Numbered from the stretch's first letter, positions 14,437 to 28,483 are shown. The stretch is DNA of 32,000 nucleotides from Ktedonobacterales bacterium (GCA_030167145.1 CP126532.1:1890001-1922000); one strand, 5' to 3'. Program-made: numbers and translations. The notes: a model not told the origin generated them from the letters alone.

Positions 14437-14458
14437 GGTGGTGTCCTGGTGTTAGAAT
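14430..14458 (+). promoter_or_regulatory. candidate antisense promoter TGGTCA-N17-TAGAAT
   Basis: -35-like TGGTCA at 14430-14435, a 17-nt spacer, then -10 TAGAAT at 14453-14458. It overlaps the start codon and SD of the pglX C-half on the opposite strand. Confidence 0.3.
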
Positions 14459-14502
14459 GAGCGCAATCCAGTGATCTAGAGGGGGAAGGTTGGAGCCTTC
14501 GG

Positions 14503-14531
14503 CGGCCCTGTATAGGGCCGTTTTTGTTTAT
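14503..14531 (+). terminator. intrinsic-terminator-like hairpin oriented on the plus strand
   Basis: CGGCCC-TGTATA-GGGCCG followed by TTTTTGTTTAT. It is preceded by a second small hairpin, GAAGG-TTGGAG-CCTTC (14485-14500). The T-tract is on the plus strand only, antisense to the operon. Confidence 0.45.
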
Positions 14532-14547
14532 GCGAGTTGTGACTGAT

Positions 14548-14970
14548 CTAGGGAATGTACCAGCCTCTACGCGAGCGGCGGCCTTTGCCATATTGCGCTG
14601 GGATGCCGATGCCTAGCTCGTCTTCGGTGCGGTGCGTGCGGTGGGTGCGGGTAATGTTGGTGTCGCGGTATTCGGTCTCCCAGTCGTGGTGTTTGTGGCG
14701 CGGTCGGTCAGGCTTTTTGCGCGTGCGCTTCGCCGGTGGTCGTGGCTGGGCGGGACGGGTGAACCAGTCGGTGATGCCTCGCGCGGGCTTGGTTTCGAGT
14801 CCGGCGGGCGTGGGCAGCCCAGGGCCGGTCACGTAGTAGAAGCAGTGTGTGCCTTTCGCTGGCTGCTGCCGGAGCTTGTCCGCGTGGGTGGTGGCTTCGG
14901 CGAGCGTCTTGAAGCTGGCGGCTAGCTTATGCTGGTCCCCGATGCGGCGGTAGACCGAGTATTTGCTCAT
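14548..14970 (-). CDS. hypothetical 140-aa protein with a basic R/K/H/P-rich tail, inside the pglX split
   Basis: ORF 14548..14979. ATG 14970 has GGAGAGG 9 nt upstream. The sequence is MSKYSVYRRIGDQHKLAASFKTLAEATTHADKLRQ... followed by PAKRTRKKPDRPRHKHH...GKGRRSRRGWYIP. I recognised no family. Confidence 0.45.
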   Translation of the reverse strand: MSKYSVYRRIGDQHKLAASFKTLAEATTHADKLRQQPAKGTHCFYYVTGPGLPTPAGLETKPARGITDWFTRPAQPRPPAKRTRKKPDRPRHKHHDWETEYRDTNITRTHRTHRTEDELGIGIPAQYGKGRRSRRGWYIP

Positions 14971-15048
14971 GGTACCCATCCTCTCCGCGAGTTCAAGGGC
15001 GAACGTCTGTCGCGATCATGCCAACAGTATGAGTATGGCGACGATAGT

Positions 15049-17409
15049 TCATGGGTTTTTCTCCAGAACGTAGGCGGCGGTTTCGACCATGGCGGTATCG
15101 AGGACGCCGTAGCCGAGGTCGGCGAGGGCGATGGGGCGGGCTTCGGTGAGCAGGATGTCTTCGCGCCACTTCTGGAACGAGGTGAGGAAGAAGCCGGTGC
15201 GCGAGGTAATGGCGCCGAGGCGTCCGCTGGGTTCGAGCAGGGCGAGGCCGCGTTCGACGAAGGCGGCGTAAAGATCATTTTTGGTGCGGGGATAGGTTTT
15301 CTCGATGTAGGGCTTGGCGGGGGCGCTGGGTTCGCCGAACGGGGGATTCATCAGTACGACGCTGTAGCACTTCTCCAGCAGTTCGATGAGCGCGAAGCCA
15401 CGGGCGGCGTCCTCGGCGAAGAGGTGGCGAGTGTAGTCGTCGTCGCTGGTGGTGGCGTCTTCGGCAAAGCGGCGCAAGGCGGCGAGGACGCGCGGCTCGG
15501 CCTCGGTTTCGTAGAAGCGCGCGTCGGAGACACCTTCGTAGTTGAGCGTCTGCTGTTGTGGTGGCTGCCCCTGCGCGAAGAGGGTAAGCTGGACGTTGCC
15601 ACCGCCGGTTCTGATCCACTCGCGTTTGGCGTTGGCGATCTCCTGGCGCAGGGCGACCTCGACCTGGAGCAGCGAGCCAGCCTCACCGGCGAGGCGCATC
15701 TCACCCCATATATCGCGGACAAAGGGGTCGAGCGCGGGCGGATCGAGGGTCTTGGTGAAGGCGTCGAGCAGGTCACGCTCGCCGGGCATTGGCTCGGCAT
15801 AGACGAGATTGGCGCGGCGGATGGGCGGGCGCTGGTCGCGCGGGAGGCTGAGCGCGGCGTATTCGCGCTGGGCGCGCAGCCAGAGGGCGAGCGCGGCGAT
15901 CTGGACGGCGCGGAGGTCAATATCTACGCCGTGCAGGTTGTGGCGTAAGATCAGGGCGGGAACGGCGGCTTGATACGCGGGGAAGTCGCTGGCGAACTCG
16001 CTCTGGAGCGCGGGGCCGAGGTCATCATCTGCCCAGGCTTCGTGATAGATGCGCACGAGCAGGTCGAAGCAGTAGAGCAGGAAGTGGCCGCTGCCGCAGG
16101 CGGGATCAAGGATACGTAGTTCGCGGGGGTCGCGCTTGGCGCGATGGGGGATGATTTCGACTTCGCGATTCCACGCCTCGCAGATGGCGCGATGGAGTGC
16201 CCGCCAGTAGTCCAGGTCTTTGCCCTCTGGCGTCTCGCCGAAGTGATGCCAGCGGCGCTGCTCAAAGAAGAGACAGAGGCGTAGCTCTTCGAAGCTGCCG
16301 TTGATATTGCCCGTCTCGACGTATTCTTGCTGCTTGTCGTTCGCAATGGAAGCGACCATATCGAAATCGCGCGCTTCCGCAGATGTATCGTGCGCCAGGT
16401 GTGTCTGGGCGTAGGCATAGCCGTCTACCGTGAGCGCATAGCGCATTATGGCGTCAACAGAGGTTGCGGCGGGATTGGGGCGGGTCCACAGCTCTCCACC
16501 ACCCTCGCCCGGCATCACCCACGCGTCCTGTTCGGCATTGAACATGAGCGGCTCGTGCTGACCACGGCGCAGCCAGATGGGGTGTGGGGTGATGAGCATC
16601 GTTTCACAGAGGGTGGCGAGGCTGGTGTGGCCGTGGGTCATCTCCCACCAGAGGCGCCCAAGCGTGTTATCTGCCAGGAATTCGACGACGTAGCGCGGGG
16701 TGTAGAACTGATTGCGGAAGGCTAACTCGTAGCTGTTGCGCGGGGCCTGGCTGGCTTTGCGCGCCTCGTCGCGTAGCTCTTTGGGGGTGAAGTACTGGTA
16801 AATCCAGCCGATGGTCTCGTCGGCGTCCCAGACGCTGGCTAGCTCGGCATCGTTGAGGAGGGCGAGCACGTCTTCGAGCACGCGCTGTGGCGGGAAGAGC
16901 CGGTTGGCGGGGTCGTGCGGCGAGAAGAGGGCGGGCAGCTCGCTGGCCAGGGTCTGCCCAGTCCATTCGAGGAAGTGGCGATAGGCGAGATCCTGGCGGC
17001 CAGCGGACCAGAGGGTTTCTTCGCCGGGATTGTCGGCGAGATAGAACTTGAAGCCGTTGCTGTTGAGGCTACGGGAGACGGTCTCGCGGATGAGCTTGCG
17101 GCGTTCGAGCAGCTTGTAGGCGCAGAGGCGATTGAGATGCGTGAAGGCGACTTCGCGGATAAGCTGAGCGACGGCATCGTGCGCGGAGAAGCGGCGGGCG
17201 CCGAGGTGGGCGAGATACCGCACGACCTGCGCGCGATAGGCGAGGTCGGCGGGGGAGAGGTGGGCCATGCGCGCGGCTGGCTCGACTGCGCCGTGGCGGT
17301 GGATGCCAAACTGGCCTTCGAGTAGCTCGGCGACGGTGTCTTCGAGCAGCTTGCGGCACTGTGTGACGGCGAGGCGCAGGGTGTTGCGGATAGATTTATC
17401 GAGTGTCAT
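15049..17409 (-). CDS. pglX: PglX N-terminal half (N6-adenine methyltransferase module) as a separate ORF
   Basis: ETIGWIYQYF, FYTPRYVV, motif I ILDPACGSGHF and motif IV VVLMNPPFG are present. It ends ...TAAYVLEKNP-TGA at 15049-15051. Its ATG overlaps the stop of the upstream gene (TGATG). Confidence 0.85.
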   Translation of the reverse strand: MTLDKSIRNTLRLAVTQCRKLLEDTVAELLEGQFGIHRHGAVEPAARMAHLSPADLAYRAQVVRYLAHLGARRFSAHDAVAQLIREVAFTHLNRLCAYKLLERRKLIRETVSRSLNSNGFKFYLADNPGEETLWSAGRQDLAYRHFLEWTGQTLASELPALFSPHDPANRLFPPQRVLEDVLALLNDAELASVWDADETIGWIYQYFTPKELRDEARKASQAPRNSYELAFRNQFYTPRYVVEFLADNTLGRLWWEMTHGHTSLATLCETMLITPHPIWLRRGQHEPLMFNAEQDAWVMPGEGGGELWTRPNPAATSVDAIMRYALTVDGYAYAQTHLAHDTSAEARDFDMVASIANDKQQEYVETGNINGSFEELRLCLFFEQRRWHHFGETPEGKDLDYWRALHRAICEAWNREVEIIPHRAKRDPRELRILDPACGSGHFLLYCFDLLVRIYHEAWADDDLGPALQSEFASDFPAYQAAVPALILRHNLHGVDIDLRAVQIAALALWLRAQREYAALSLPRDQRPPIRRANLVYAEPMPGERDLLDAFTKTLDPPALDPFVRDIWGEMRLAGEAGSLLQVEVALRQEIANAKREWIRTGGGNVQLTLFAQGQPPQQQTLNYEGVSDARFYETEAEPRVLAALRRFAEDATTSDDDYTRHLFAEDAARGFALIELLEKCYSVVLMNPPFGEPSAPAKPYIEKTYPRTKNDLYAAFVERGLALLEPSGRLGAITSRTGFFLTSFQKWREDILLTEARPIALADLGYGVLDTAMVETAAYVLEKNP

Positions 17410-18221
17410 CAGGAAACACCCCTCAGCGTGACGACGAGGTCGGCGTGTTGGGCGTGTTCGGCCACGAGTTCATCGAGGGCGAGGCAGATGTGCTTGATGG
17501 TATCCACGGATTGCGTGGCCCAGGAATAGCTGATCTCCTGCACCTTGCCGTCGGGGCTGGCTTGTGCGCGGTCGGCGCGGTGGACGATGTCGTTGCGGCG
17601 GCGAGTGGTTTCGTCAATGACGCTCATCAGCTCTTTCTTGTCGCGCTGGAGCTTGGCGGCGATCTGATCCCAGGGCTTTTCGAGGCTGAGCAGCGCGCCG
17701 ACAACATGCACACCCTTGCGCGAACTGAGGTATTTGAAGGAGGTCTGCGCGAGGATGCGGTTGGCGATGAAGAGCGGGGCGTCGGGATCGCCGAGCAGCC
17801 GGAGGGTCTCGGAGAGCGAGAAGGTGAGGTCTTTGAAATACTCTTCGATGCTGGGATCGGGTGGCAGGAAGTCGCGCCCGCGCGCGGCGATCACCTGGGG
17901 GAGATTGGCGCGGAGCACGGATGGCAAGTAGGCGTCGAGTGCGGTGCAAGCGGCGACGACCGATTGGCGCAGCAGGTTGGCGAGCGACTGGCGTCGCAGG
18001 GCGCTCTTGGGGATCTGGGCGCTCTCGCGGACGAGGCCGACGAAGATCTCGTTGTAGATCAGCATCAGGTCTTCGTCGTGCTGGGCATGGACGATGCCGG
18101 CCAGCGCGGTGACCAGCTCGCCATCGGTCTGGATGGTCTGGCAGTCGAGCAGGCGGTAGACGCGCAGCAGCAGTTCGGCGGGGCGCATGGTGTCTTCGAA
18201 TACCTGGCGTGGACTCGTCAC
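17409..18221 (-). CDS. HEPN-like (Rx4H) protein embedded between brxC and pglX
   Basis: GTG start at 18221 preceded by AAGGAGAAGGAGGG with a 6-nt spacer. The stop overlaps the pglX ATG by 1 nt. It is a helical 270-aa protein with ETTRRRNDIVHRAD near the C-terminus (RNDIVH = R-N-x3-H, 17580-17597). The family assignment is inferred only. Confidence 0.55.
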   Translation of the reverse strand: MTSPRQVFEDTMRPAELLLRVYRLLDCQTIQTDGELVTALAGIVHAQHDEDLMLIYNEIFVGLVRESAQIPKSALRRQSLANLLRQSVVAACTALDAYLPSVLRANLPQVIAARGRDFLPPDPSIEEYFKDLTFSLSETLRLLGDPDAPLFIANRILAQTSFKYLSSRKGVHVVGALLSLEKPWDQIAAKLQRDKKELMSVIDETTRRRNDIVHRADRAQASPDGKVQEISYSWATQSVDTIKHICLALDELVAEHAQHADLVVTLRGVS

Positions 18222-18244
18222 GTGTGGCCCTCCTTCTCCTTGTC

Positions 18245-21200
18245 CTATTCGACGATGATGCTGGCGCCCTGGGCGAGCAGCTTGAACAGTTCGTCGCGGA
18301 GCTTGTCGAGCGCGGCGTTCACGGCGGCTTCGGTGTCCAGGGAGTCGGGAAAGAATTCGGCGGCGCGCACGTGCGAGATGGCGCTCTGGCCGCGCTCCGC
18401 CGTATCGGGCGCAAGGGTCAGCTCCTGGATGCGCGCGAGCGCCTGGGATTTGAGGCCAGCGAGGGCGAGCAGGTCGGATTCGATTTGGCTGAGCGTCGCG
18501 TGGCAGTGCGGGCAGACGCTGGCCGTATCGTCGAGATGAAGACCTTCGATGCAGGCGCGCTGGGTCAGGGGATCGAGCAGCGCCGGACGGGAGGCTTCGG
18601 GCACATTGGGCCAGTTGGCGCTGCCCTTGATCGCGTCAATCGCGGCATCGAAGTGACTGTGCCGTTTCGCGTGCAGCCCCTCGTAGACATCGGCGTAGGC
18701 GGCGGCGAGCGCGCGGGTCATGTCGCGCAGGTGGGGCAAGCGCTCGTAGAGCGTGCTGTCACCGAGGATGTGCTGTATTTCCGCGGCTTTGTCGTCCAGC
18801 CCGTCGGTTGCGCCACGGGCTTGCAGGATGGGCCATTGCTGGTCGAGGACACGCCGGGCGTCGCGGACGGTGGCGACGATGTGCTGCTCGGTCAGCGCTT
18901 CGCGGATGCGCCGGGCCTGGGCGCGCAGCTCTTTGAGGGAGGTGCTTTCGCCGGCGAGGGTGCGCACGCAATCGTCTGAGGCGGCGTTCTGGATGGCGGT
19001 GAGGGACTGGTAGTAGTCGTCGAGCAGGTCCATGCCGGGGAGGTCGTTGGCGCGGACCTCGGCGCGGGCGGGCAGCAGGAGCGCAATCTCCGCGTTGGCC
19101 AGCTTCTTCAGGCTTTCGGCGATGGCGCCTTCTTCGACATCCACCTCATCGCCGGTGAGGGTCTCGAAGCCACGCACGGCGGCGGTGAGGGTGCGCAAAT
19201 CAATAGATTCGCGCGGGGTGAACGAGGCGCTGCGGAAGGCGGGGTTGGAGGTGAGCGGAGTGCGGCAGAGTGGGTCTTGCGCGTTGCGGTAGCGCCGGCC
19301 CTGATAGGTCACCTCGACGGCGCCCGCGCGCAGCAGCAGCGCCAGCACCAGCTTGATGACGTCGAGTTCCCAGCCGTAGGAAAGGCCGGTGAAGTGGGCC
19401 TCCAGCTCTTTGCCGGTGACGCGGTTGCCGTAGGAGTGCTCTTTCTTGAGATAGTCGAGCACCTCTTTGGCGATCTCGGCGTGGACATGGGGGACGAACT
19501 TCGCGCCCTCTTTGGTGACGAGGTTGAGGCCGTGCTCGCCACCGTAGAATACTTGCGGGAGCGCGTTGAGGTTGGCGGCTTTGAGCACTTCGTCGGCTTC
19601 GTTGCCAGTGAGGCCGGGGCGAGCGCCCATCTCGAGCTTGGGATAGAGGTCGGGGACGACGGCGTTGAAGAGATTTCGGAAGATTTCGGCGAGCGATCTG
19701 CCGAGGTCGGAGGCGTCTTTGGAGATGCCGCGAAAGATGCTCTGGCCGCGTGCGAGCGCCGCCTCCAGCTTCTCGCGCAGGCGACTCTGGTAGCGCGCTT
19801 GCTCGCGTTTCTCGGCATCGAGGAGGGGGGTAAGCTCGGCGGCACGCTCGCCCTGCGCGCCCGCCTGGCTATATTTGGCGATCATCTGGCTGGAGGCATG
19901 CACCTGATTGATCAAGGTGTCTAACTCGGCATCCAGGGCGAAGATCCAGTAGATGTCGTTGGTGTGGTCGCCCATGCGGCTCTCGCTGCGGGCGTCTTCC
20001 AACCGGCTGGCAAGCTCGGTCGGCGCGTCGGCGACGCGGAGGGTGAGCGGAATATCGCCCGTCGCAAGGCGCACGTCGTCCATGGTCAGTCCGACCTTGA
20101 AGGTGCGCTTGAGCGGGTGCTGGTAGGTGAGCAGTTTTTGGTCGGAGAAGATTTTTAGCAGGGACTCGCGTTGAATCTCGTTGCGCTCGCGGGGTTTGGG
20201 TTCGAGATACTGCTTGCGCTCGGTATCCCAGTTCTTCTCCTGGGCGGTGAGCAGTTTCCAGCCTTCTTCGGTATGGCGGACGAACTGCGCTTGCTCCAAC
20301 CTGCGGATCGCCGCTTGTACCTGCGGCAGCGGCGCGGACGCGCCCACCTGATCCACCAGCACGGCGGCGACGTTGGCGTCGGTGCGAGGCAGGTCGCGCA
20401 CGAATTCGAGCAGGCAGAGCGCCTTGGCGACGCGGGCGGCCCAGCCGGCATCGTCGCGGTCACTCTTGAAGCGTTCGGTGATGTCGCTGATGTCTTTCTG
20501 CTTCTCAGACGAGAGACTGCCCTCGACCAGCTCGTAGATCAGATCGAGGGTGACGAGCCGCCCGACGGGCTGCCGCGCGAGATCGGTGCGCGGCGCGGTG
20601 AGCATGGAGTGCGCTTGTTTGATGATGGTGCGGTTGCTGCCGCTGATGTGGCGCGGCGCGCCGGGTTGGGAGCGGATGCCAGTCATGATATCTATCGAGA
20701 GGTCAATGTAGTGCGGCAGGTAGGGGTAGAAGCGCACGAAGTCGTCTTCGCGCACCTCACTCTTGCGGCTGGTGCGCTCCAGATGGCAGGAGGTGTTGAG
20801 CTGGCCCTGCGCCTGGGCGAAGATCTGGCGCAGTTCGGGGACGGCGCTGGGCTTCTTATCGAGCACGCGCTTGGTGGCGACTTCGCTGATGTCGGCGGGG
20901 GTGAGGTCCACGCGATGGCGGAAGCGGTCCTGCACCATGGCGAGCTGCACGCGGCGCGAGTCGAGGGCGGAGACGACTTCTTCGAGTTTCTCCTGGCTGG
21001 TGACGATGATCCAGATGGGGGCGATGGCCTGGCGGGCGCGGATGCGGTTCTTGCTCTCCTGGCCGAAGTGTTCGACCACGGCGCGCAGATCGTTGAGCTT
21101 GTCGGCGCTCTGCGAGACATACTGGCCCACTTCGTCTACGATGAAGGTGAGCGCTTTGCCGGGGCGGCGGCGCGCCATTAGCTCGAAGGCGCGATCCACC

Positions 21201-21913
21201 AGCTTTTTCGTGTTGATGTCTGCGGTACGCCCAGCCAGTGACCGCGCCCAAGAGTCGGCGGCGGGGTAGGTGCGTGGGTCGAGTTCGTGCAGCGCGGCAC
21301 TGGCGCGATTCAGCTTCGTTGCGCCAGTGCGGACAACCTCCCAGGGTGGGCCGCCGTGCGCCTGAGCACAGGCGACGAATGCGTCGAGCTGGCCATCGCG
21401 CTCAAGCTCAATTTCTAGCTCGGCGATATCGAAGTCTTCGGCGTAACCCAGCGAGCGCAAGAGCTGGGCGTAGAGAAGCTCAGTGATGCGCTCGTTATTG
21501 GTACGTGCGGAACGCTCGACCATGACATCGAACATGATGACTTCGGTGGGGATGCGCGCGGTGATGAAGTCTACCAGTTGCGAGATGGCGGGGTCGTCAA
21601 GCTGCTGCTTAAAGAGGTCGGCGGCGCGGTGGCCGAGCACGGTGCGATTGGCGAGGACGTAGCCGAGGTTTTTGGCGAAGGAGGATTTGCCGGAGCCGAA
21701 GAAGCCAGAGATCCAGATGCCGACGCCTTCGGTGAGATCGGTGGGCGCGTCGGCCATGGCTTTGAGCAATCCGTGATAGTGTTCGCGGATGCGTTTGGTG
21801 GCGACGTATTCGGTGAGTTCACTGTAGACGGTCTTTTCGTCTTCCTGGGTCACCTTGATGATTTCTTCGATGTGCTGGTTCAGGTCGCGGCTGAGCAGGT
21901 CTTGTATGTGCAT
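18245..21913 (-). CDS. brxC: BREX P-loop ATPase BrxC
   Basis: 1222 aa. The N-terminal region is typical of BrxC (MHIQDLLSRDLNQHIEEIIKV...GIWISGFFGSGKSSFAKNLGYVL, Walker A). Confidence 0.9.
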   Translation of the reverse strand: MHIQDLLSRDLNQHIEEIIKVTQEDEKTVYSELTEYVATKRIREHYHGLLKAMADAPTDLTEGVGIWISGFFGSGKSSFAKNLGYVLANRTVLGHRAADLFKQQLDDPAISQLVDFITARIPTEVIMFDVMVERSARTNNERITELLYAQLLRSLGYAEDFDIAELEIELERDGQLDAFVACAQAHGGPPWEVVRTGATKLNRASAALHELDPRTYPAADSWARSLAGRTADINTKKLVDRAFELMARRRPGKALTFIVDEVGQYVSQSADKLNDLRAVVEHFGQESKNRIRARQAIAPIWIIVTSQEKLEEVVSALDSRRVQLAMVQDRFRHRVDLTPADISEVATKRVLDKKPSAVPELRQIFAQAQGQLNTSCHLERTSRKSEVREDDFVRFYPYLPHYIDLSIDIMTGIRSQPGAPRHISGSNRTIIKQAHSMLTAPRTDLARQPVGRLVTLDLIYELVEGSLSSEKQKDISDITERFKSDRDDAGWAARVAKALCLLEFVRDLPRTDANVAAVLVDQVGASAPLPQVQAAIRRLEQAQFVRHTEEGWKLLTAQEKNWDTERKQYLEPKPRERNEIQRESLLKIFSDQKLLTYQHPLKRTFKVGLTMDDVRLATGDIPLTLRVADAPTELASRLEDARSESRMGDHTNDIYWIFALDAELDTLINQVHASSQMIAKYSQAGAQGERAAELTPLLDAEKREQARYQSRLREKLEAALARGQSIFRGISKDASDLGRSLAEIFRNLFNAVVPDLYPKLEMGARPGLTGNEADEVLKAANLNALPQVFYGGEHGLNLVTKEGAKFVPHVHAEIAKEVLDYLKKEHSYGNRVTGKELEAHFTGLSYGWELDVIKLVLALLLRAGAVEVTYQGRRYRNAQDPLCRTPLTSNPAFRSASFTPRESIDLRTLTAAVRGFETLTGDEVDVEEGAIAESLKKLANAEIALLLPARAEVRANDLPGMDLLDDYYQSLTAIQNAASDDCVRTLAGESTSLKELRAQARRIREALTEQHIVATVRDARRVLDQQWPILQARGATDGLDDKAAEIQHILGDSTLYERLPHLRDMTRALAAAYADVYEGLHAKRHSHFDAAIDAIKGSANWPNVPEASRPALLDPLTQRACIEGLHLDDTASVCPHCHATLSQIESDLLALAGLKSQALARIQELTLAPDTAERGQSAISHVRAAEFFPDSLDTEAAVNAALDKLRDELFKLLAQGASIIVE

Positions 21914-22139
21914 ACCTATCCCCCTGGCCCCCTTCCCTACGAGGGAAGGGGGGAATGTACCTATCCCCCTGGCCCCCTTCCCTACGAGGGAAGGGGGAAG
22001 ACGGACCTATCCCCCTGGCCCCCTTCCCTACGAGGGAAGGGGGGAATGTACCTATCCCCCTGGCCCCCTTCCCTACGAGGGAAGGGGGAAGACGGACCTA
22101 TCCCCCTGGCCCCCTTCCCTACGAGGGAAGGGGGAAGTG
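21914..22139. repeat. tandem array of 5 GC-hairpin repeat units filling the DUF559-brxC spacer
   Basis: Units start at 21914, 21959, 22005, 22050 and 22096, so periods alternate 45/46 bp (a 91-bp higher-order unit). Each unit is ACCTATCCCCCTGG + CCCCCTTCCC-TACGA-GGGAAGGGGG. The spacers alternate between AATGT and AAGACGG. Confidence 0.95.
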
Positions 22140-22538
22140 TTAGTGTGCGGCGTCGGGCGCTGGTGGCGCTGATGTCCGACAGGCGGCGGCGATGCGTGCG
22201 AGAACGCTGGGCAGATCGCGCTGGATGTCGTGATTGGATATGCGCAGCACGCGCAATCCATGGCCGACGAGCACTTGATCTCTCTCTGTATCATACTCCA
22301 CCTGCTCGTTGTGAATGCTACCATCCACTTCGACGACAAGTGCGGCTGCGTGACAGTAGAAATCCACGATAAATCCGGCGATCACTTGCTGACGCCGGAA
22401 GTGAAGCCCTTGCAAGCGATTCGCGCGCAGCCAGTGCCAGAGCAGTTCTTCCTCCTCAGTCATCGCCGCCCGAAATGCCCTGGCTTGTTCCACCTTCACT
22501 GGCGCCACTCGCTGTCCACGGACGATCTTTCGTGCCAT
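22140..22538 (-). CDS. DUF559 (Vsr-like / PD-(D/E)xK fold) endonuclease-domain protein
   Basis: EEELLWHWLRANRLQGLHFRRQQVIAGFIVDFYCHAAALVVEVDGSIHN...DQVLVGHGLRVLRISNHDI matches the DUF559 pattern (LW..LR...FRRQ..ig.yivDF.c....lviElDG..H...D..Rd..L...G..vlRf). Confidence 0.85.
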   Translation of the reverse strand: MARKIVRGQRVAPVKVEQARAFRAAMTEEEELLWHWLRANRLQGLHFRRQQVIAGFIVDFYCHAAALVVEVDGSIHNEQVEYDTERDQVLVGHGLRVLRISNHDIQRDLPSVLARIAAACRTSAPPAPDAAH

Positions 22539-22554
22539 ATCGCTGTATTCCTCT

Positions 22555-22597
22555 CTTATACTGCCCTTATACCGCCCTTATACCGCCCTTATACTGG
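22555..22597. repeat. four direct repeats of CTTATAC(C/T)GCC with an exact 11-bp period, upstream of DUF559
   Basis: CTTATAC occurs at 22555, 22566, 22577 and 22588. On the coding strand each reads GTATAAG. The repeats lie 17-60 nt upstream of the DUF559 ATG (22538). Confidence 0.85.
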
Positions 22598-22620
22598 ATG
22601 GTCTTGACCTGTTTGGACTA

Positions 22621-22648
22621 GCGCATCGCAGCCTGTATCGGGATGCGC
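22621..22648 (-). other. hairpin immediately after the stop of the pglX paralogue
   Basis: GCGCATC (22621-22627) pairs with GATGCGC (22642-22648) around a 14-nt loop. No U-tract follows on the coding strand, so terminator function is doubtful. Confidence 0.3.
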
Positions 22649-25600
22649 TCACCTCTCCTCCCCCTTCCCTCCCAGGGAAGGGGGCTGGGGGGTTAGGTCC
22701 GTCTCCCCCTTCCCTCCCAGGGAAGGGGGCTGGGGGGTTAGGTCCGTCTCCCCCTTCCCTCCTAGGGAAGGGGGCTGGGGGGTTAGGTCCGTCTCCCCCT
22801 TCCCTCCTAGGGAAGGGGGCTGGGGGGTTAGGTTCTGCGCGATGGCGTAGCTCTGGTTCGCGCGGCAAGCGGCGAGGACGCGGTCGGGCCAGTAGCGCAT
22901 GGCGGTGCGGGACCAGTCGTAGTCGCCGCGCTCCAGCGCCTGCCAGCATTGCCGGGGTTCGGTGGACCAGGCGGGCATGAGGGTATGAAGCGGGGCGAGG
23001 TTGATGAGGATGCCGTCGTCTAGCTCTGGCGCCCAGCCGGTCGTCTCGCCGCGCGCGTTGGGCTGGGTGGTGACGGCGGCGAGGGCTTTGTCGAAGGCTT
23101 CGAGGTCGTTGAGGGTGGATTCGAGCGCTTCGAGGGCGCGTTCGGCGCGGCGGCGCTCGGCGCCCTGGGGCAGCGCGGGCAGGCGCTGGCGCTGCTCGGC
23201 GATGTCGCGCCGGACGGAGGCGATGCGGCCGCCCAGGTAACGGCTGCCGCGCAGCAGGTGCAGGGTGTCGCGGGTGACGCATTCGGCGAAGAGGTAGACG
23301 CCGTAGCCGCGCTTGGGCGATTGCAGCAACCAGTAGATGGGGCGCTTACGATAGCGTTTGTGGTGGTCTTTGAAGAAGTCTTTGGCGAGCCAGTCGTGCA
23401 GCGGGCGCCCGCCAGTGGCGGTGGCGAGCAGGCCCTCGACCTTATCGTCGCCGAGCAGGACTTCGAGCACGTGGGTGACGCGGGCGGCGAGGTCGTCGGG
23501 GTGGCCAGGATCGAGTACGGCGATGGGGGACCCCTCCCCCAGCCCCTCCCCCACAGGGAGAGGGGAGTTGAGAGTGAGGGGGGTAATGGCGAGGCTGGCG
23601 GCTGGGGGTGTGCCATCGGGCGCAGGGAGCGGTGCGACGCCGTTGCCAAGCGCGCCAAGGATGCCGGGGGAGAAGCGACCGAGGGCGATGCCGACGGCGT
23701 AGCTGACCCAGCGCGCGGCGAGGGATGACCTATCCCCCCCGGCCCCCCTTCCCTGGGAGGGAAGGGGGGAGAGAGAGGCATGCGCGCCGTTTGCGCAAGA
23801 TTCGCCATCTGCGCTATTGATGGCATCCGCGTCCGCGTCCGCTTCTTCGTATTTCTCCGCGTCACGATCATCGCCAGCCAGCGCCGCCGCCTCGTCTTCC
23901 TCCTCCCCCTCACGCGCCCCACCTGCTAGCGCCGCCGCCACCTCGTCTTCCTCCTCCCCCTTCCCTCCCAGGGAAGGGGGCTGGGGGGATAGGTCCGCTT
24001 CGATGGCGGCGCGGTCTGCGGGGCTGATGTCGTAGAGGCGGTAGACTTCTTCGTTTATTTCGCGCTCGATGGCGGCGAGCTCGGCGTGACGGGCGGCGAC
24101 GCGGGCCAGACCATCGGGCCAGGCGGGCGGGGCGACGAACTCGTAGGTGGTCTCGTCTTCGGCGCTGTCGGCGCGGGCGAGGGCTATCGCCCGCTCGACG
24201 AGGCCGCGCAGGGTGTCGCTGGACACGGTGGGGATGGGGAGACGCTTCAGATCGCCCAGGTAAAAGTGAAACGTTGGATTCAGCACCGCAAGTAAGTGAT
24301 TAGCAACTGACGAGTTCAATATGCCAAGCAGCTTATATAAAATGCTGCTCTGCTCAGAGAAAATACAGTTGCCTGCATGATCAAAGAGAAAGCCAGCAGG
24401 CATGTAGCGTATGCTTAAACCTTTGGATGTGAGATCAGTGAAAGTCAGTCCTTGGTGGAAATAGAGTTGTCTGCTTGGAAGTTTGTTGCCTCTTTCGGAA
24501 AGAATGCGGAAGTGGGGCAAGTCGTAAGCAATTACAAATTCTTGGTTACCCCACCAGCGTCGGAACTCACCGCCCTTCATATGTGGAAACCACCGCTTCC
24601 CTGTGTACCAGGCTTCCTCGGCAGATGTGCAACCGAATCCAATACTAGAAATGCCTACCTCCCACCAGAATCGCAAGAAACGCGAATTTCCTGATGTTGC
24701 CAGCCCTTGTCGCGGATTAGCACTATTGACAAGTTTAGGCAAATTAGCGAAGAGTGATCGTAGAGACGGGGTTATTTGGTAGACCCAGGGGGAGCCGGGG
24801 ATGGCATCGAAGTCGCGCTGGCGGTAGGCGTAGACGGCGGGGTCGGTTGCGCCAGCCTGGAAGGCGGCGACGGCACGCTCGAAGCCACGGCGCTTGGCTT
24901 CGGCGTCGGGTTCGCGGACGAGGCGGATATACCTGCCGGTGGCGTGGTCGCGGCGGGCGGCGTCGGGTTCGGCGCGGAGGACGAAGAGGGTAGTGTTGAC
25001 TATCTCGCCGTCGATCTCGGCAAAGGCGCGCGGGCCGACGTGGATCATCGTTTCGATGGCGGTCAGGTGGCGCAGCTTGTCGCGCAGCGCTTCGTAGCTG
25101 CTGATGAACATGAACGACTGCTGTGTAATCATCGCCAGCCGTCCGCCGGAGGCGAGCATCTGTGCGCAGCGGTCAATGAACGCGGCGTAGAGGTTGTCTT
25201 CGGATGCTGGAAATTCCACTTCCAGATATTTGCGCATGGTGGCTGACATGTTGTCGCTACCCATATAAGGCGGGTTGGCGGCGACGACATCGTAGCGGCG
25301 GAGCATCACGTCGAGCAGGCGCATGCCCTTGACGGCTTCGCCGGCGAAGTAGGCCTGGTCTATGCCTTCGCGGGCCTGCTGGCGGGCGAATTCGTCGAAG
25401 GCCTGGACGATCTGCGCTTCGAGGATGCCCCAGTATTCGTCGTCGTCGGCGTCTTCTTCGAAGAGCGTGCGCAGCTCGGGGAAGGGCAGGCGCCCCTGGC
25501 CTTCGAGGCGGAAACGCTGGCGTTCGGCCAGGATGATGGCGCGAATCTCGTCTTCGAGCCGCAGCAGCGAGCCAAGCTGGTTGGCGTCGCGCAGGCGCTG

Positions 25601-27004
25601 CCAGACGGCGCGAATCACGCGCTCGTAGATCGGGCGCGAGAACTTCGCCGTGTCAATAAACGCATCCAGACGCTTGCCGTTGAGCAGCAGCACATCGGCG
25701 CAGGCGAGGTTGCTGTGGCGGATGGTGACGTGAGGGTTAAGCGCGGCGGCTTTGAGATAGAGCGTCAGCGCGGAGAGCTGCACGGCGCGCAGGTCAATAT
25801 CTATGCCGAAGAGGTTGTGCTCGACGATGGCGGCGGGAATCTCACTGGCGTCGGGCACGGGTGGCGTCGCGGGCCAGCCTGGCTCACCGGCGCGCTCGAT
25901 CTCCTCCTGATACATCGCCGCGAAGAGATCGAAGGCGACCAACCCAAAGTGCATCGTGCCGCAGGCCGGATCCAGCAGCGTCATCTCCCGCACCGACCTC
26001 ATTCCCTCTCCCCCCTTCCCTCCTAGGGAAGGGGGGCTGGGGGGGTTAGGTTCCGCTCCCCCCTTCCCTCCTAGGGAAGGGGGGCTGGGGGGGTTAGGTT
26101 CCGCTCCCTCCTTCCCTCCCAGGGAAGGGGGGCTGGGGGGGTTAGGTTCCGGGACGAGCGAGGTGAGGGAGTCGCGCAGGCGGCTGTCGGGGTGCATCTG
26201 GAGCCAGAGGCGGCCAAGGGAGTTTTCGACCAGCGCGCGGACAATCCAGCGCGGGGTGAAGAGTTGGGTTGCGGCGGGAATCTCGCTGGCGGTGATCTTC
26301 GCGCCTTTGTTCAGCCGGGCAAAGACCTCGGCTTTCTCCTGCTCGTTGAAATACTGATAGATCCAGCCGATGGTTTCGTCGTCGGCCCAGGCGGGGGCAA
26401 CGTCGGCGGCGTTGACCAGCGCGAGCAGGCTGGCGAGGGCGCGGGGGCGCGGGCAGAGGCGGCTGGGGAGGTCGGTGGGGTCGAAGAGCGCGCGAATCTG
26501 GCTGGCCATGGCGGCGCAGAGGTGCAGCAGGTAGTGGCGATAGGCGGTGTCGCGCGGGCCTTCGCCGAGGGCATCGAGCGGCAGCGAGCCAGATTCATAG
26601 CGGGCGTAGTCGTCTTCGTGGCCCGGCTCGGTGAGCCAGAGCATGAAGCCGCCGGACTGCTGGCCCTTGCCGACGCTGGCCTTGATGAGCTTGCGGGCTT
26701 CGAGCATCTTGAACGCGGAGACGCGGTTGAGCCAGGTGTAGGCGACCTCTTTGGTGAGCTTGGCGACGGCCTCGCGCGGGGTGAGTCCGGCGGTCTTTTC
26801 GTCGGCCAGCAGACGTTCTAAGCGGGCACGGGTGTCGCGGGCGTCGGATAGCTGCTGGATGGCGGGGAGGGTATCGGCTGGCTCGAAGCGGCCATCGCGA
26901 TGCAGGCCATAGACGCCTTCGAGGAGGTCGGTTGTCTCGGTGGTGAGCAGGTGGCGGGCGTCGAGGGTGAGGTCGTGCAGGCGGGTGCGGAGCGTACTTT
27001 CCAT
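22649..27004 (-). CDS. second, intact PglX-like N6-adenine methyltransferase (1451 aa) between brxB and brxC
   Basis: The start is set at ATG 27004 (MESTLRTRLHDL...), because the 1640-aa ORF extension overlaps brxB. ETIGWIYQYF, FTPRWIV, motif I LLDPACGTMHF, motif IV VVAANPPYMG, IPGSPWVYQ, RFLRFWWEV, PIYWLLQSPKR and YDWSR are present. It contains 10 in-frame repeat copies, including a 4x C-terminal LTPQPPSLGGKGETD tail. Confidence 0.85.
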   Translation of the reverse strand: MESTLRTRLHDLTLDARHLLTTETTDLLEGVYGLHRDGRFEPADTLPAIQQLSDARDTRARLERLLADEKTAGLTPREAVAKLTKEVAYTWLNRVSAFKMLEARKLIKASVGKGQQSGGFMLWLTEPGHEDDYARYESGSLPLDALGEGPRDTAYRHYLLHLCAAMASQIRALFDPTDLPSRLCPRPRALASLLALVNAADVAPAWADDETIGWIYQYFNEQEKAEVFARLNKGAKITASEIPAATQLFTPRWIVRALVENSLGRLWLQMHPDSRLRDSLTSLVPEPNPPSPPSLGGKEGAEPNPPSPPSLGGKGGAEPNPPSPPSLGGKGGEGMRSVREMTLLDPACGTMHFGLVAFDLFAAMYQEEIERAGEPGWPATPPVPDASEIPAAIVEHNLFGIDIDLRAVQLSALTLYLKAAALNPHVTIRHSNLACADVLLLNGKRLDAFIDTAKFSRPIYERVIRAVWQRLRDANQLGSLLRLEDEIRAIILAERQRFRLEGQGRLPFPELRTLFEEDADDDEYWGILEAQIVQAFDEFARQQAREGIDQAYFAGEAVKGMRLLDVMLRRYDVVAANPPYMGSDNMSATMRKYLEVEFPASEDNLYAAFIDRCAQMLASGGRLAMITQQSFMFISSYEALRDKLRHLTAIETMIHVGPRAFAEIDGEIVNTTLFVLRAEPDAARRDHATGRYIRLVREPDAEAKRRGFERAVAAFQAGATDPAVYAYRQRDFDAIPGSPWVYQITPSLRSLFANLPKLVNSANPRQGLATSGNSRFLRFWWEVGISSIGFGCTSAEEAWYTGKRWFPHMKGGEFRRWWGNQEFVIAYDLPHFRILSERGNKLPSRQLYFHQGLTFTDLTSKGLSIRYMPAGFLFDHAGNCIFSEQSSILYKLLGILNSSVANHLLAVLNPTFHFYLGDLKRLPIPTVSSDTLRGLVERAIALARADSAEDETTYEFVAPPAWPDGLARVAARHAELAAIEREINEEVYRLYDISPADRAAIEADLSPQPPSLGGKGEEEDEVAAALAGGAREGEEEDEAAALAGDDRDAEKYEEADADADAINSADGESCANGAHASLSPLPSQGRGAGGDRSSLAARWVSYAVGIALGRFSPGILGALGNGVAPLPAPDGTPPAASLAITPLTLNSPLPVGEGLGEGSPIAVLDPGHPDDLAARVTHVLEVLLGDDKVEGLLATATGGRPLHDWLAKDFFKDHHKRYRKRPIYWLLQSPKRGYGVYLFAECVTRDTLHLLRGSRYLGGRIASVRRDIAEQRQRLPALPQGAERRRAERALEALESTLNDLEAFDKALAAVTTQPNARGETTGWAPELDDGILINLAPLHTLMPAWSTEPRQCWQALERGDYDWSRTAMRYWPDRVLAACRANQSYAIAQNLTPQPPSLGGKGETDLTPQPPSLGGKGETDLTPQPPSLGGKGETDLTPQPPSLGGKGEER
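22658..22833. repeat. tandem array of 4 GC-hairpin units (45-bp period), inverted relative to the 21914-22139 array, forming the C-terminal tail of the pglX paralogue
   Basis: Units start at 22658, 22703, 22748 and 22793. Each is CTCCCCCTTCCC-TCC(C/T)A-GGGAAGGGGG + CTGGGGGGTTAGGT. Two copies have loop TCCCA and two have TCCTA. 45 bp equals 15 codons. Confidence 0.95.
23529..23567. repeat. diverged variant of the hairpin element (CCCCTCCCCC-ACAG-GGGAGAGGGG), in frame
   Basis: GACCCCTCCCCCAG + CCCCTCCCCC ACAG GGAGAGGGGAG, translated as LNSPLPVGEGLGEGSP. It has the same tail-plus-hairpin layout and one stem mismatch. Confidence 0.6.
23728..23771. repeat. GC-hairpin repeat element, single copy, in frame
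   Basis: ACCTATCCCCCCCGG + CCCCCCTTCCC-TGGGA-GGGAAGGGGGG, translated as LSPLPSQGRGAGGDRS. Long tract class. Confidence 0.85.
23954..23994. repeat. GC-hairpin repeat element, single copy in the opposite orientation, in frame
   Basis: CTCCCCCTTCCC-TCCCA-GGGAAGGGGG + CTGGGGGGATAGGT, translated as DLSPQPPSLGGKGEEE. Confidence 0.85.
26008..26150. repeat. tandem array of 3 GC-hairpin units (48-bp period), in frame, directly upstream of MTase motif I of the pglX paralogue
   Basis: Units start at 26008, 26056 and 26104. They belong to the long tract class (C6/G6 stem, G7 tail). 48 bp equals 16 codons (PNPPSPPSLGGKGGAE). The third copy has one C>T change in the C-tract. Confidence 0.95.
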
Positions 27005-27108: not shown

Positions 27109-27690
27109 TCACCCGTAGACTTTGACGCGATAGTTGCCCATGGCCTCGCGGTTCTTGAGATCCATGAAGCGCAGGCCGACGGTACCCTCGAGTGTGCCGG
27201 GGTAGAAGAGGATGGCGGGGACGGCGGTGCGGCGCTGCATCTCGTCGAGTAGCCGCGACATCTGGTAGATGGAGGGCGCCATGGCTGAGGCGCGGGTGAG
27301 GAAGACGAGGTCGCGCTGCGGATCGAAGGGGCGCATGCGCTCGGCCAGGGTATCGGGCAGGGGCCGCCAGAAGGGATGGGAGAGATAGGTCGTCGCCTGC
27401 TCCTCGGCGGCGGCGAAACCACTCATGCGCTCTAGCTCTACCAGCGCATCCAGTCCTTCGGTCTGCGCGATGGTTTCCCAGAGCAGGCCAGCGAGCGAGA
27501 TGGTGTGAACGCGCTTGCCGGTCTGTGCGAGACTGTCGGCGAGCAGCCGGGCGCGGCGGCGCATATCCCACTCGGCCTCTGGCTCGTAGCGCAGGATGGC
27601 GAACGGGAGGTCGGTATGGTTGGCGATGCGCATCGGCGTGGCGGTGAGGTCGCGTTCGAGCAGGTCAAAGCGGTCTTTGAGTGAGAGCAT
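27109..27690 (-). CDS. brxB: BREX protein BrxB (DUF1788)
   Basis: 193 aa. MLSLKDRFDLLERDL...LPFAILRYEPEAEW...HTISLAGLLWETI resembles the DUF1788 family. GAGGAG lies 7 nt upstream of the ATG. It overlaps the brxA end by 26 nt and follows brxA as in BREX-1. Confidence 0.8.
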   Translation of the reverse strand: MLSLKDRFDLLERDLTATPMRIANHTDLPFAILRYEPEAEWDMRRRARLLADSLAQTGKRVHTISLAGLLWETIAQTEGLDALVELERMSGFAAAEEQATTYLSHPFWRPLPDTLAERMRPFDPQRDLVFLTRASAMAPSIYQMSRLLDEMQRRTAVPAILFYPGTLEGTVGLRFMDLKNREAMGNYRVKVYG

Positions 27691-28483
27691 GCGCGTACTC
27701 CTCTAGCGAACGGGTAGGAAACTCAACGCGGATGACCCGTCCAGCGGCTTGATAGGTGAGCAGGCGCTCCTGGTGCGCTTCGAAGAAGAGCAGTTCGACG
27801 GCGGGCTGCGCGAGGAAGAAAAGCTGCCAGGATGGGTCGTGCAGCAGCTTCGCGCCGGACGGCTGGTCGCGGCTGAGCAGCAAGGCGAGCAGGGCGAAGG
27901 CGGGTGGGGCAAGGTAGATGGGGCCGAGCCGCTTCGCGACCTTGCCTTGCAGGATGCCGAAGTCGCGCAGCGTTGCCAGCAGCCCGACTGCCAGGCGGCG
28001 GATGGTGACATCGGACCATGGGCGCTGTGTTTTGCCAGCGGCCATCTGTTCGTTGAGCCAGCGCACCACGTCTTCGGGTCGCACGAGGGTGTGCCCACGG
28101 GCGAGCATCGGCCCCAGCAGATCCAGCACCACATCGCGGAGCAGCGGGTCGGTGCGTGTCGCCAGCACGTACAAGATGGGGTCCAGGAGCGAACTGGGGG
28201 CACTAGAACTGGAACTGGCAAGGGTCACGAGCATCCGCAGGATCTCGGGGTCGGTGAGATAGCGCTCGCGGAAGATATCGAGCATCTCGGGGATGCGGGA
28301 ACGCGAGGCCTTGGCGAAGATGTTGTCGGCGCGCATGCGTTCCAAGTTGGCGGGCACAGTGGCGGAGAGATCCCAATGGGCGAGCATGAGTTTGGTATCG
28401 GGTAGGAGCGCGCCGACGTGATTGATGCGGGTGGAATAGCGTTGGGAGTGCTGGGAGTGCCCGGATTTAGCCGTGACTGCCAT
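27665..28483 (-). CDS. brxA: BREX protein BrxA (DUF1819-like), first gene of the locus
   Basis: 272 aa. YSTRINHVGALLPDTKLMLAHWDLS...NIFAKASRSRIPEMLDIFRERYL is consistent with DUF1819/BrxA. Its position immediately upstream of brxB supports the call. It is longer than I expect for BrxA. Confidence 0.7.
   Translation of the reverse strand: MAVTAKSGHSQHSQRYSTRINHVGALLPDTKLMLAHWDLSATVPANLERMRADNIFAKASRSRIPEMLDIFRERYLTDPEILRMLVTLASSSSSAPSSLLDPILYVLATRTDPLLRDVVLDLLGPMLARGHTLVRPEDVVRWLNEQMAAGKTQRPWSDVTIRRLAVGLLATLRDFGILQGKVAKRLGPIYLAPPAFALLALLLSRDQPSGAKLLHDPSWQLFFLAQPAVELLFFEAHQERLLTYQAAGRVIRVEFPTRSLEEYAHALTQRPL

Follow-up and report, generated by a model that had tools for sequence, protein, structure and literature searches.

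The window analysed here, a stretch of 32,000 nucleotides from a Ktedonobacterales bacterium, corresponds to positions 1,890,001-1,922,000 of Ga0494333_323 (5.07 Mb; Joint Genome Institute (JGI) sample 3300045419; a metagenome-assembled genome). It carries a complete type 1 gene set of the bacteriophage exclusion (BREX) defence system, namely brxA, brxB, brxC, pglX, pglZ and brxL. Between a full-length pglX, designated pglX', and brxC lies a small gene of the DUF559 family, flanked on either side by an array of short hairpin repeats. We interpret the gene and its arrays, a block of 922 bp (21914-22835), as one copy of a widespread family of minimal cassettes, each with hairpin ends and a single Vsr-fold DUF559 gene, whose ends have been tandemly amplified in this copy; we put the probability of this reading at about 0.55.

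Tandem Repeats Finder, run on the window, detected a left array at 21913-22137 (period 46, 4.9 copies) and a right array at 22658-22833 (period 45, 3.9 copies, 99% identity). On the plus strand, five tail-hairpin units (21914-22139) thus precede the DUF559 gene and four hairpin-tail units (22658-22833) follow it, mutually inverted and with the tails outermost, which confirms the layout described in the initial annotation. The unit is composed of a 14-nt tail, ACCTAWCCCCCYRG, and a hairpin, CCCCCTTCCCT-N4-GGGAAGGGGG, with an 11-bp stem (-13.1 kcal/mol, folded as DNA), and its hairpin core matches 16 sites in the window versus none in 100 shuffles. Read on the coding (minus) strand, the left array (21914-22139) is the downstream flank of the cassette and comprises five units, alternately 45 and 46 bp long, of hairpin CCCCCTTCCCT-CGTA-GGGAAGGGGG plus tail CCAGGGGGATAGGT. 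It occupies the whole gap between the DUF559 TAA (22140-22142) and the brxC ATG (21911-21913). This flank begins with CACTAACAC, which contains the DUF559 TAA and is possibly the remnant of a left tail, and continues with five right half-units that end ...GGGGGATAGGT right before the brxC ATG. The upstream flank (22649-22835, minus strand) holds the right array, four left half-units of 45 bp, each made of tail AACCTAACCCCCCAG and hairpin, and then GAGAGGTGA, which provides a TGA stop and resembles GAGAGGTCA, the outer tail of hairpin 2 in the canonical two-hairpin module described below. With left half-units in one flank and right half-units in the other, the "inverted arrays" represent a single cassette whose two unlike ends have each been tandemly amplified.

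Each array contains its own sequence variants, and the left array also shows a higher-order repeat with a period of 91 bp (2.4 copies, 100% identical); the arrays therefore expanded locally. In coding DNA the array periods, 45 and 48 bp, are divisible by three, as opposed to 91 bp in the non-coding array. The hairpins lack a T-run and hence differ from classical terminators. A simple promoter and terminator scan of the region called neither, and an Rfam scan of 21700-23000 at permissive thresholds returned nothing beyond chance matches below threshold, to microRNA and other hairpin families. CGTC was considered as the tag of the unit and rejected, since it precedes some hairpins in the window but not in other genomes.

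The DUF559 gene (22140-22538, minus strand), also called on the source contig, encodes a Vsr-fold endonuclease-like protein of 132 aa. It matches Pfam PF04480 with E=1e-33 and 115.8 bits (cut-off 20.6) over profile positions 5-108 of 109, and PDB 3HRL, an "endonuclease-like protein", with E=5.6e-20. In an alignment of 36 homologues from several phyla, residues D59, E70, H76 and D83 do not vary, and D72 is conserved to at least 90%. The window protein has every residue that is invariant in this subfamily alignment, and the invariant acidic and histidine residues are predicted to be of catalytic type. DUF559 has been grouped with Vsr and with I-Bth0305I (PMC3424549), a Vsr-fold enzyme proven to be a homing endonuclease (PMC3424549, PMC3239194). 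The region 5' of the gene (22539-22648, minus strand) has an 11-bp tandem repeat, TATAAGGGCGG (3.6 copies, 22555-22594), and an inverted repeat with a 7-bp stem, GCGCATC...GATGCGC (22621-22648); a simple scan of it found no sigma-70 consensus promoter and no intrinsic terminator. The TATAAGGGCGG repeat, located just 5' of DUF559, creates four TATAAG boxes at even spacing.

The right array is translated as part of pglX' (22649-27004, minus strand; 1451 aa as called, 1640 aa as the maximal open reading frame (ORF)). Translation verified the in-frame read-through that had been proposed: after ...SYAIAQN the protein continues with three copies of LTPQPPSLGGKGETD and a final LTPQPPSLGGKGEER before the stop, so that its last 60 residues are four copies of LTPQPPSLGGKGE(TD), and the TGA (22649-22651) lies 7 nt beyond the last array base (22658). 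The initial annotation took this protein for a PglX paralogue. It is instead the full-length PglX of the locus (NF033452, 802 bits, profile positions 3-1209 of 1210), and the copy in the canonical position is split. Displacement of the native C-terminus, suggested at the same time, is borne out by relatives of 1270-1330 aa that end ...AIAHG plus 1-15 residues, without repeat peptides; PglX' exceeds them by ~150 aa owing to inserted repeat units. The closest PglX' relative (67% identity) belongs to locus L202, whose BREX genes follow the same unusual layout; there, pglX' and brxC are separated by a different 106-aa ORF, and neither DUF559 nor any unit is present. Nucleotide homology to L202 (~80%) ends at window position 22836 and restarts at 21913, exactly the outer array edges. 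The 922-bp block is therefore lineage-specific, and the last seven native pglX' codons have been removed.

Association of DUF559 with the hairpin repeat in other genomes

In a repeat-first sample, at least 120 stretches from many JGI metagenome samples were chosen by the oriented unit pattern alone, and DUF559 homologues were sought in them by tblastn with the window protein. A homologue (46-64% identity) was found in 9 of the 120 pattern-selected stretches listed. The repeat lies within ~200 bp of the gene in eight of these nine, and two copies bracket the gene in four. Five of the DUF559-carrying loci represent one orthologous fdh junction, which leaves four independent contexts in addition to the window.

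The gene-first sample consisted of the best 80 DUF559 loci, one genome per species, retrieved with the alignment of 36 homologues as query; they come from cyanobacteria, Chloroflexota, Latescibacterota, Bipolaricaulota, Fraserbacteria and Bacillota. The tail motif CCTAWCCCC (9 nt, gene orientation) occurs within 250 nt upstream of the gene in 56/80 loci, at its 3' end in 59/80 and in both places in 43/80, and most loci have exactly two copies per 8 kb. The copy at the 3' end mostly overlaps the DUF559 stop codon as ACC-TAA. Near the gene the motif is found 133 times in 76.8 kb, compared with 35 times in 488 kb farther away; the corresponding counts for the second tail, GGGGAGRGGTC, are 81 and 9, with a single occurrence in reverse orientation. 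Both tails are 24-57 times denser near DUF559 than farther off, in fixed orientation, and motif density falls with distance from the gene. Five loci without the tail motif have the same layout with diverged polypyrimidine/polypurine hairpins. A motif-free test gave a similar picture: a repeat common to both 300-nt flanks is present in 56 of 77 loci (73%) versus 13 of 259 control intervals (5%) from the same loci.

The best 80 loci fall into 32 different upstream contexts, one of which, acnB-DUF29-cassette-ndhD, is shared by 32 cyanobacterial loci. Other copies have fdh, hyp, acnB/ndhD or two-component operons as neighbourhoods. The cassette is present in the complete genomes AP018269, AP018194, OZ244937 and JAOSJS010000001. 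Many annotated DUF559 homologues terminate in "...T*" or run into peptides encoded by repeats. At the fdh junction the cassette is present in two loci (L102 and L121) and missing from five (L204-L208); in cassette-free fdh contigs whose upstream protein is 99% identical, the spacer is plain and ~105 nt long, without cassette or units. The cassette was considered as the cause of the split in the fdh gene and rejected, because the same gene is split in cassette-free relatives too. Together with its hairpin flanks, DUF559 forms a discrete cassette that recurs and can occupy or be missing from a particular site; the window arrays are the amplified ends of one copy. The mobile cassette envisaged in the initial annotation is upheld in that the window copy is one block, with L202 homology breaking at its edges, and in that it recurs in many unrelated contexts.

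The initial annotation had set against this a second reading, independent accumulation of the repeats at two gene ends. The part of it that concerns local growth of the arrays stands, given their own variants and the 91-bp higher-order repeat, but independent origin does not. In its strict form this reading holds that a generic, genome-wide REP-like (repetitive extragenic palindromic) repeat gathered at two gene ends with DUF559 merely in between. Solo copies of the unit do occur in many places and metagenomes, and the variants private to each array point to local expansion. However, the protein-first and the motif-free tests, both with controls, show association, and homology to L202 breaks exactly at the outer array edges. 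In addition, every unit in 49.8 kb of the source genome falls within 12997-26151, 13 kb around DUF559, and none in the remaining 37 kb of flanking genome (eight independent sites in 27% of the sequence; P ~2e-5, a rough estimate). We therefore give very little credence to a landscape without a cassette.

Vsr enzymes pair with methyltransferases, and a restriction-modification-like partnership of DUF559 with PglX had been suggested on account of their adjacency. Indeed, DUF559 lies between pglX' and brxC and is probably co-transcribed, so that it could be a Vsr-like or restriction-like nuclease working with the methyltransferase. Several observations speak against this suggestion. BREX genes were found in none of the ~200 other DUF559 or repeat loci, L202 has its 106-aa ORF at the DUF559 position, and PADLOC gave no BREX-accessory match. 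Vsr goes with C5-cytosine methylation, whereas PglX belongs to the N6-adenine enzymes; no C5-cytosine methyltransferase adjoins the window gene as in a Vsr-Dcm pair, and the neighbours of other copies are unrelated. A dedicated BREX partner is hardly tenable.

Phage was rejected as the vector, as 2.9 million viral contigs contain essentially no member of the DUF559 subfamily (one 35% match); the repeat unit is present in 10 contigs of the viral collection. Literature on DUF559 with repeats, hairpins or mobility, and on repeats of Ktedonobacteria and Chloroflexi, yielded no description of a DUF559-repeat link, and the DUF559-hairpin cassette is apparently undescribed.

Anatomy of the cassette family

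The canonical flank is a two-hairpin module of ~85-92 bp with the order GACCTAACCCCC, hairpin 1 (CCCCCTTCCC..GGGAAGGGGG), spacer, hairpin 2 (CTCCCCTCYCC..GGRGAGGGG) and GGGGGAGAGGTCA. The module ends form an inverted repeat. At 21 loci a full module is present on either side of DUF559 in direct orientation (FR|FR), and at 10 loci the gene lies between hairpin 1 and hairpin 2 of a single module (F-|-R). DUF559 within a single dimer is a parent/miniature relation. Gene-less copies take the form of full modules, single hairpins with both tails, inverted pairs and tandem arrays. Gene-less "dimers" of ~90 bp, with ends GACCTAACCCC...GGGGWKAGGTC, look like internally deleted versions of the cassette, and the terminal inverted repeats are common to the short and the gene-bearing forms. 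The flanks of one locus resemble one another more closely (median 0.91) than do those of different loci (0.76). Two pairs in hairpin 2 carry compensatory changes, U-A/C-G in the first and G-C/U-A in the second; they alone covary clearly, since similar cyanobacterial copies make up most of the sample. In 13 of 58 loci, an ORF of at least 60 codons ends with a stop codon that overlaps the outermost upstream tail, versus 2.4% at random positions.

Tandem duplications of module and DUF559 with a 564-bp period were found at L195:3361-4489 and likewise in L152 and L172, in Latescibacterota and Anaerolineae genomes. Arrays of longer repeat units adjoin DUF559 in L190 and L191. In four AT-rich contigs, probably cyanobacterial (L012, L019, L027 and L032), a gene-less module is located inside a longer conserved repeat starting ...GACTTTTCACGTCATGTGGAAAAA, which suggests that the repeat family is composite. 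Among copies in the window (21914-26151) and in L126, L132 and L150, the hairpin loop varies in its four bases, often as reverse complements (CCCA/TGGG, CCTA/TAGG), and one locus has GCAA in one flank and TTGT in the other. Such loops suggest flipping by recombination inside the palindromic stem.

The predominance of direct flanks bears on inversion, which the initial annotation had proposed as the function of the arrays. A programmed invertible segment would flip the 518 bp that carry DUF559 and thereby switch DUF559, brxC or the PglX' tail. The window arrays are inverted, with arms of 159 nt (72% complementary) and 40 nt (90%), and "DUF559 domain-containing protein" is 14-fold enriched among predicted inversion targets (PMC9881135). 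This enrichment is, however, the expected outcome of palindromic flanking repeats in an inverted-repeat screen. Moreover, direct flanks are the commonest arrangement elsewhere, no invertase or recombinase is nearby (the window encodes neither recombinase nor transposase), and an alternative product is not evident. Inversion as the function of the arrays finds no support, and a programmed switch is most improbable.

The ends of the module also invite comparison with integrons, whose attC sites have the consensus RYYYAAC (inverse core) and GTTRRRY (core). The left box of the module is always ACCTAAC, and the right box is GTTAGGT in some copies, so that the module might be an attC-type site and DUF559 a cassette ORF inserted by a tyrosine recombinase. 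As in integron cassettes, an ORF is followed by an imperfect palindrome with the stop codon in its first bases (the DUF559 stop lies in ACC-TAA-C, like that of many cassettes in attC inverse cores), and two imperfect palindromes of 50-92 bp in direct orientation flank the gene. Most right boxes, on the other hand, are GAGAGGT and lack the GTT needed for crossover, and the bulged bases of attC are missing from many copies, which are perfect palindromes. Rather than diverse cassettes, one gene family is linked to the site, usually with two copies per locus and no array of other cassettes, and no integrase is encoded in the window or its 20 kb of extensions. We consider an integron-like origin very unlikely.

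Repeat units and other features of the BREX locus

Further units are inserted in-frame in the pglX genes. In addition to its C-terminal array, pglX' contains an internal array of three 48-bp units (26008-26151, minus strand; PEPNPPSPPSLGGKxG x3) that is missing from L202, a solo unit at 23958-23994 (minus strand; LSPQPPSLGGKGE) and one in opposite orientation at 23728-23766 (plus strand; SPLPSQGRGAGG). A solo unit of the second hairpin type, CTCCCCTCTCCC-TGT-GGGGGAGGGG plus CTGGGGGAGGGGTC, is located at 23527-23570 (minus strand) and encodes SPLPVGEGLGEGS. The split second pglX has two solo units in its C-terminal part, at 12997-13033 (PPSLAGKGAGGLG) and, near the start of that fragment, at 14293-14333 (TPPFPRREGGLGGLG), both on the plus strand. 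At L202:13020-13060, the pglX' of the relative contains a degenerate unit-like sequence, ACCTCACCCCTGGCCTCTCTCCCTCAGGAGAGGGGAG, in the same acidic linker as the window solo unit at 23958; this linker may be an old or recurrent insertion point.

The order of the BREX genes, all on the minus strand, departs from the canonical brxA-brxB-brxC-pglX-pglZ-brxL with one intact pglX. Downstream of brxA (27665-28483) and brxB (27109-27690), pglX' and DUF559 are placed before brxC (18245-21913), and the pglX in canonical position, after brxC, is split into an N-fragment (15049-17409, 786 aa) and a C-fragment (12325-14436, 703 aa), followed by pglZ (9593-12208) and brxL (7527-9563). The pglX of L202 is split likewise (791 aa / 357 aa / 689 aa). 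The ORF between the window fragments, orf143 (14548-14979, minus strand), encodes a basic protein of 143 aa without family match, and the two PglX copies are 30-35% identical. Between brxC and the split pglX, a HEPN-like gene (17409-18188, minus strand) encodes 259 aa with a weak HEPN (RiboL-PSP) match; L202 has a 271-aa gene at the same place. The ATG of brxC is the exact right-hand edge of the lineage-specific block. Having no spacer of its own (21914-21927), brxC abuts the repeat tail, and the last left-array tail sets AGGGGGA, the sole Shine-Dalgarno-like sequence, 6 nt 5' of the ATG. In the presumed transcript, five stable hairpins precede this ATG.

Farther away, at 70-1911, one protein combines an N-terminal TIR domain (ThsB-like PADLOC matches) with a PQQ-type beta-propeller, and is possibly a further defence gene near BREX. 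A 120-bp tandem repeat at 306-729, inside the propeller-encoding half of its gene, may correspond to propeller blades.

Possible spread of the cassette and its meaning

In the reading that we propose, the cassette is delimited by the ends GACCTAWCCCC ... GGGGWKAGGTC, with a G/C-rich hairpin just inside each and one ~125-aa DUF559 nuclease gene between them. Gene-less single units and ~90-bp dimers compare with it as miniature non-autonomous elements do with their parent. The cassette sits at gene junctions, where its left end closes two frames (TGA CC TAA) and a ribosome-binding site comes after its right end, so that operons remain readable. PglX' reads through four units because the third frame is open in the window copy. 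After arrival, the left-end half-unit (x4) and the right-end half-unit (x5) would each have been tandemly amplified. The DUF559 protein would nick or cut the hairpin ends, and repair copying from another copy would carry the gene into gene-less sites. The same copying could seed nearby units, including in-frame ones in tolerant protein loops, and repair would drive tandem expansion and deletion between direct repeats. We infer that nuclease action on the hairpin ends drives the spread of both the cassette and the gene-less units.

Mobilization by an enzyme encoded elsewhere, for example a Y1 transposase of IS200/IS605 or RAYT type (REP-associated tyrosine transposase) acting on single-stranded hairpins, would make DUF559 a passenger, such as a repair or defence nuclease that benefits the element or its host. 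An IS200/IS605 element with a Y1 TnpA (128 aa) and a TnpB (378 aa) is located 0.85-2.4 kb past the right end of the window (window-equivalent 32847-34373; L222:11471-12997). Its end hairpins, CCCCATCCCT-AA-AGGGAAGGGG, resemble the unit stem, with which they have the arm GGGAAGGGG in common. Y1 transposases recognise REPs by hairpin and short flanking tag (PMC3733652), no consistent target duplication was seen at the ten ends inspected, and in PADLOC DUF559 matches DpdF weakly and locally, a hint of defence contexts. A solo TnpB gene lies on the other side (L223:15931-17055). On the other hand, no Y1 TnpA homologue was found in ~200 other repeat or DUF559 loci (1.56 Mb), whereas DUF559 adjoins the repeat in 8 of the 120 pattern-selected loci listed; the Y1 transposase was accordingly rejected as the repeat-associated gene. 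Neither GTAG nor CGTC, the tags of Y1-associated REPs, is found on the unit. Gene-repeat orientation and spacing are fixed across at least five phyla, with lineage-specific repeat variants, which is unexpected for casual cargo. A passenger role for DUF559 is thus unlikely.

Several observations weigh against the cassette with a nuclease of its own as the source of the window block. The transposase-bearing element with the same hairpin arm is only 0.85 kb past the window. Ten inspected ends, with no clean empty sites to compare them to, revealed no consistent target-site duplication. In both filled-versus-empty comparisons the whole intergenic spacer differs, which indicates replacements rather than clean insertions, and the relatives compared are merely 67-99% identical in neighbouring proteins. 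The best 80 loci are the top-scoring members of the subfamily (52-64% identity) and not all DUF559 genes. The 32 cyanobacterial loci at one syntenic site speak for long vertical inheritance there, not for active hopping. That units cluster around the window gene could be due to BREX genes that tolerate insertions, or to the history of an acquired island. Finally, a nuclease of 130 aa cannot join DNA strands on its own, so that host repair must be invoked, and nuclease activity, cut site and movement of the cassette are predictions from sequence.

Among known systems, REP/REPIN-RAYT elements (REPtrons; REPINs being paired REPs) share with the cassette short G/C-rich palindromes with a short unpaired tag, arranged as singles, inverted pairs and clusters, and one small nuclease-type gene flanked by repeats; the cyanobacterial gene, too, occupies one conserved, vertically inherited site (PMC3116915, PMC5581495). 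They differ in that the cassette gene is a Vsr-fold DUF559 and not an HUH/Y1 transposase, its tag is ACCTAWC / GWTAGGT instead of GTAG or CGTC (PMC3733652), its flanks are mostly direct, and its units also occur in-frame in genes and in head-to-tail arrays. Miniature inverted-repeat transposable elements and their autonomous parents, including palindrome-associated derivatives of IS200/IS605, offer another parallel: the gene-less dimer equals the two ends of a gene-bearing copy minus the middle, with terminal inverted repeats, subterminal hairpins and many copies. Unlike them, the cassette has no DDE, HUH or serine/tyrosine transposase, its sole protein is ~125 aa long, and no consistent target duplication was seen at the ten ends inspected.

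Vsr-like (EDxHD) homing endonucleases such as I-Bth0305I belong to the same nuclease superfamily group (PMC3424549), and homing endonuclease genes are likewise small, selfish-looking genes present or absent at otherwise identical sites, as at the BREX and fdh loci. The cassette, however, lies outside introns and inteins, complete repeat copies rather than halves of a unique target flank its gene, and its target would be a dispersed repeat. Rickettsia palindromic elements also insert in-frame in coding genes without destroying them, but belong to another sequence family and other phyla and have no associated gene, whereas the cassette family has one.

In a broader view, the family may represent a so far unrecognised minimal mobile DNA of ~0.5 kb, with hairpin-bearing inverted ends and a ~125-aa DUF559 as its sole protein. 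It would copy itself and its gene-less derivatives of ~45-90 bp by nuclease-triggered events, a counterpart of REPIN-RAYT built on another fold. Spread over Cyanobacteria, Chloroflexota, Latescibacterota, Bipolaricaulota and Bacillota, it would settle at gene junctions of operons and provide new peptide segments in proteins. We offer this wider proposal tentatively and would sooner expect parts of it to fail than the whole to hold.

DUF559 is a very large family without an assigned role, and its reproducible link to the repeat gives it a testable function, the cutting of hairpin-ended repeats. If true, the cassette would join REPIN-RAYT, the paradigm of repeats maintained alongside a dedicated nuclease, as a second and mechanistically different case. 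It would also account for a class of oddities in annotated Chloroflexota and cyanobacterial proteins, G/P-rich peptide insertions and C-terminal extensions, and may account for the scoring of DUF559 as an inversion target in inverted-repeat screens (PMC9881135). In the Ktedonobacterales genome itself, the main BREX methyltransferase holds ~150 repeat-derived residues and translation of brxC begins right behind five hairpins; either could affect defence.

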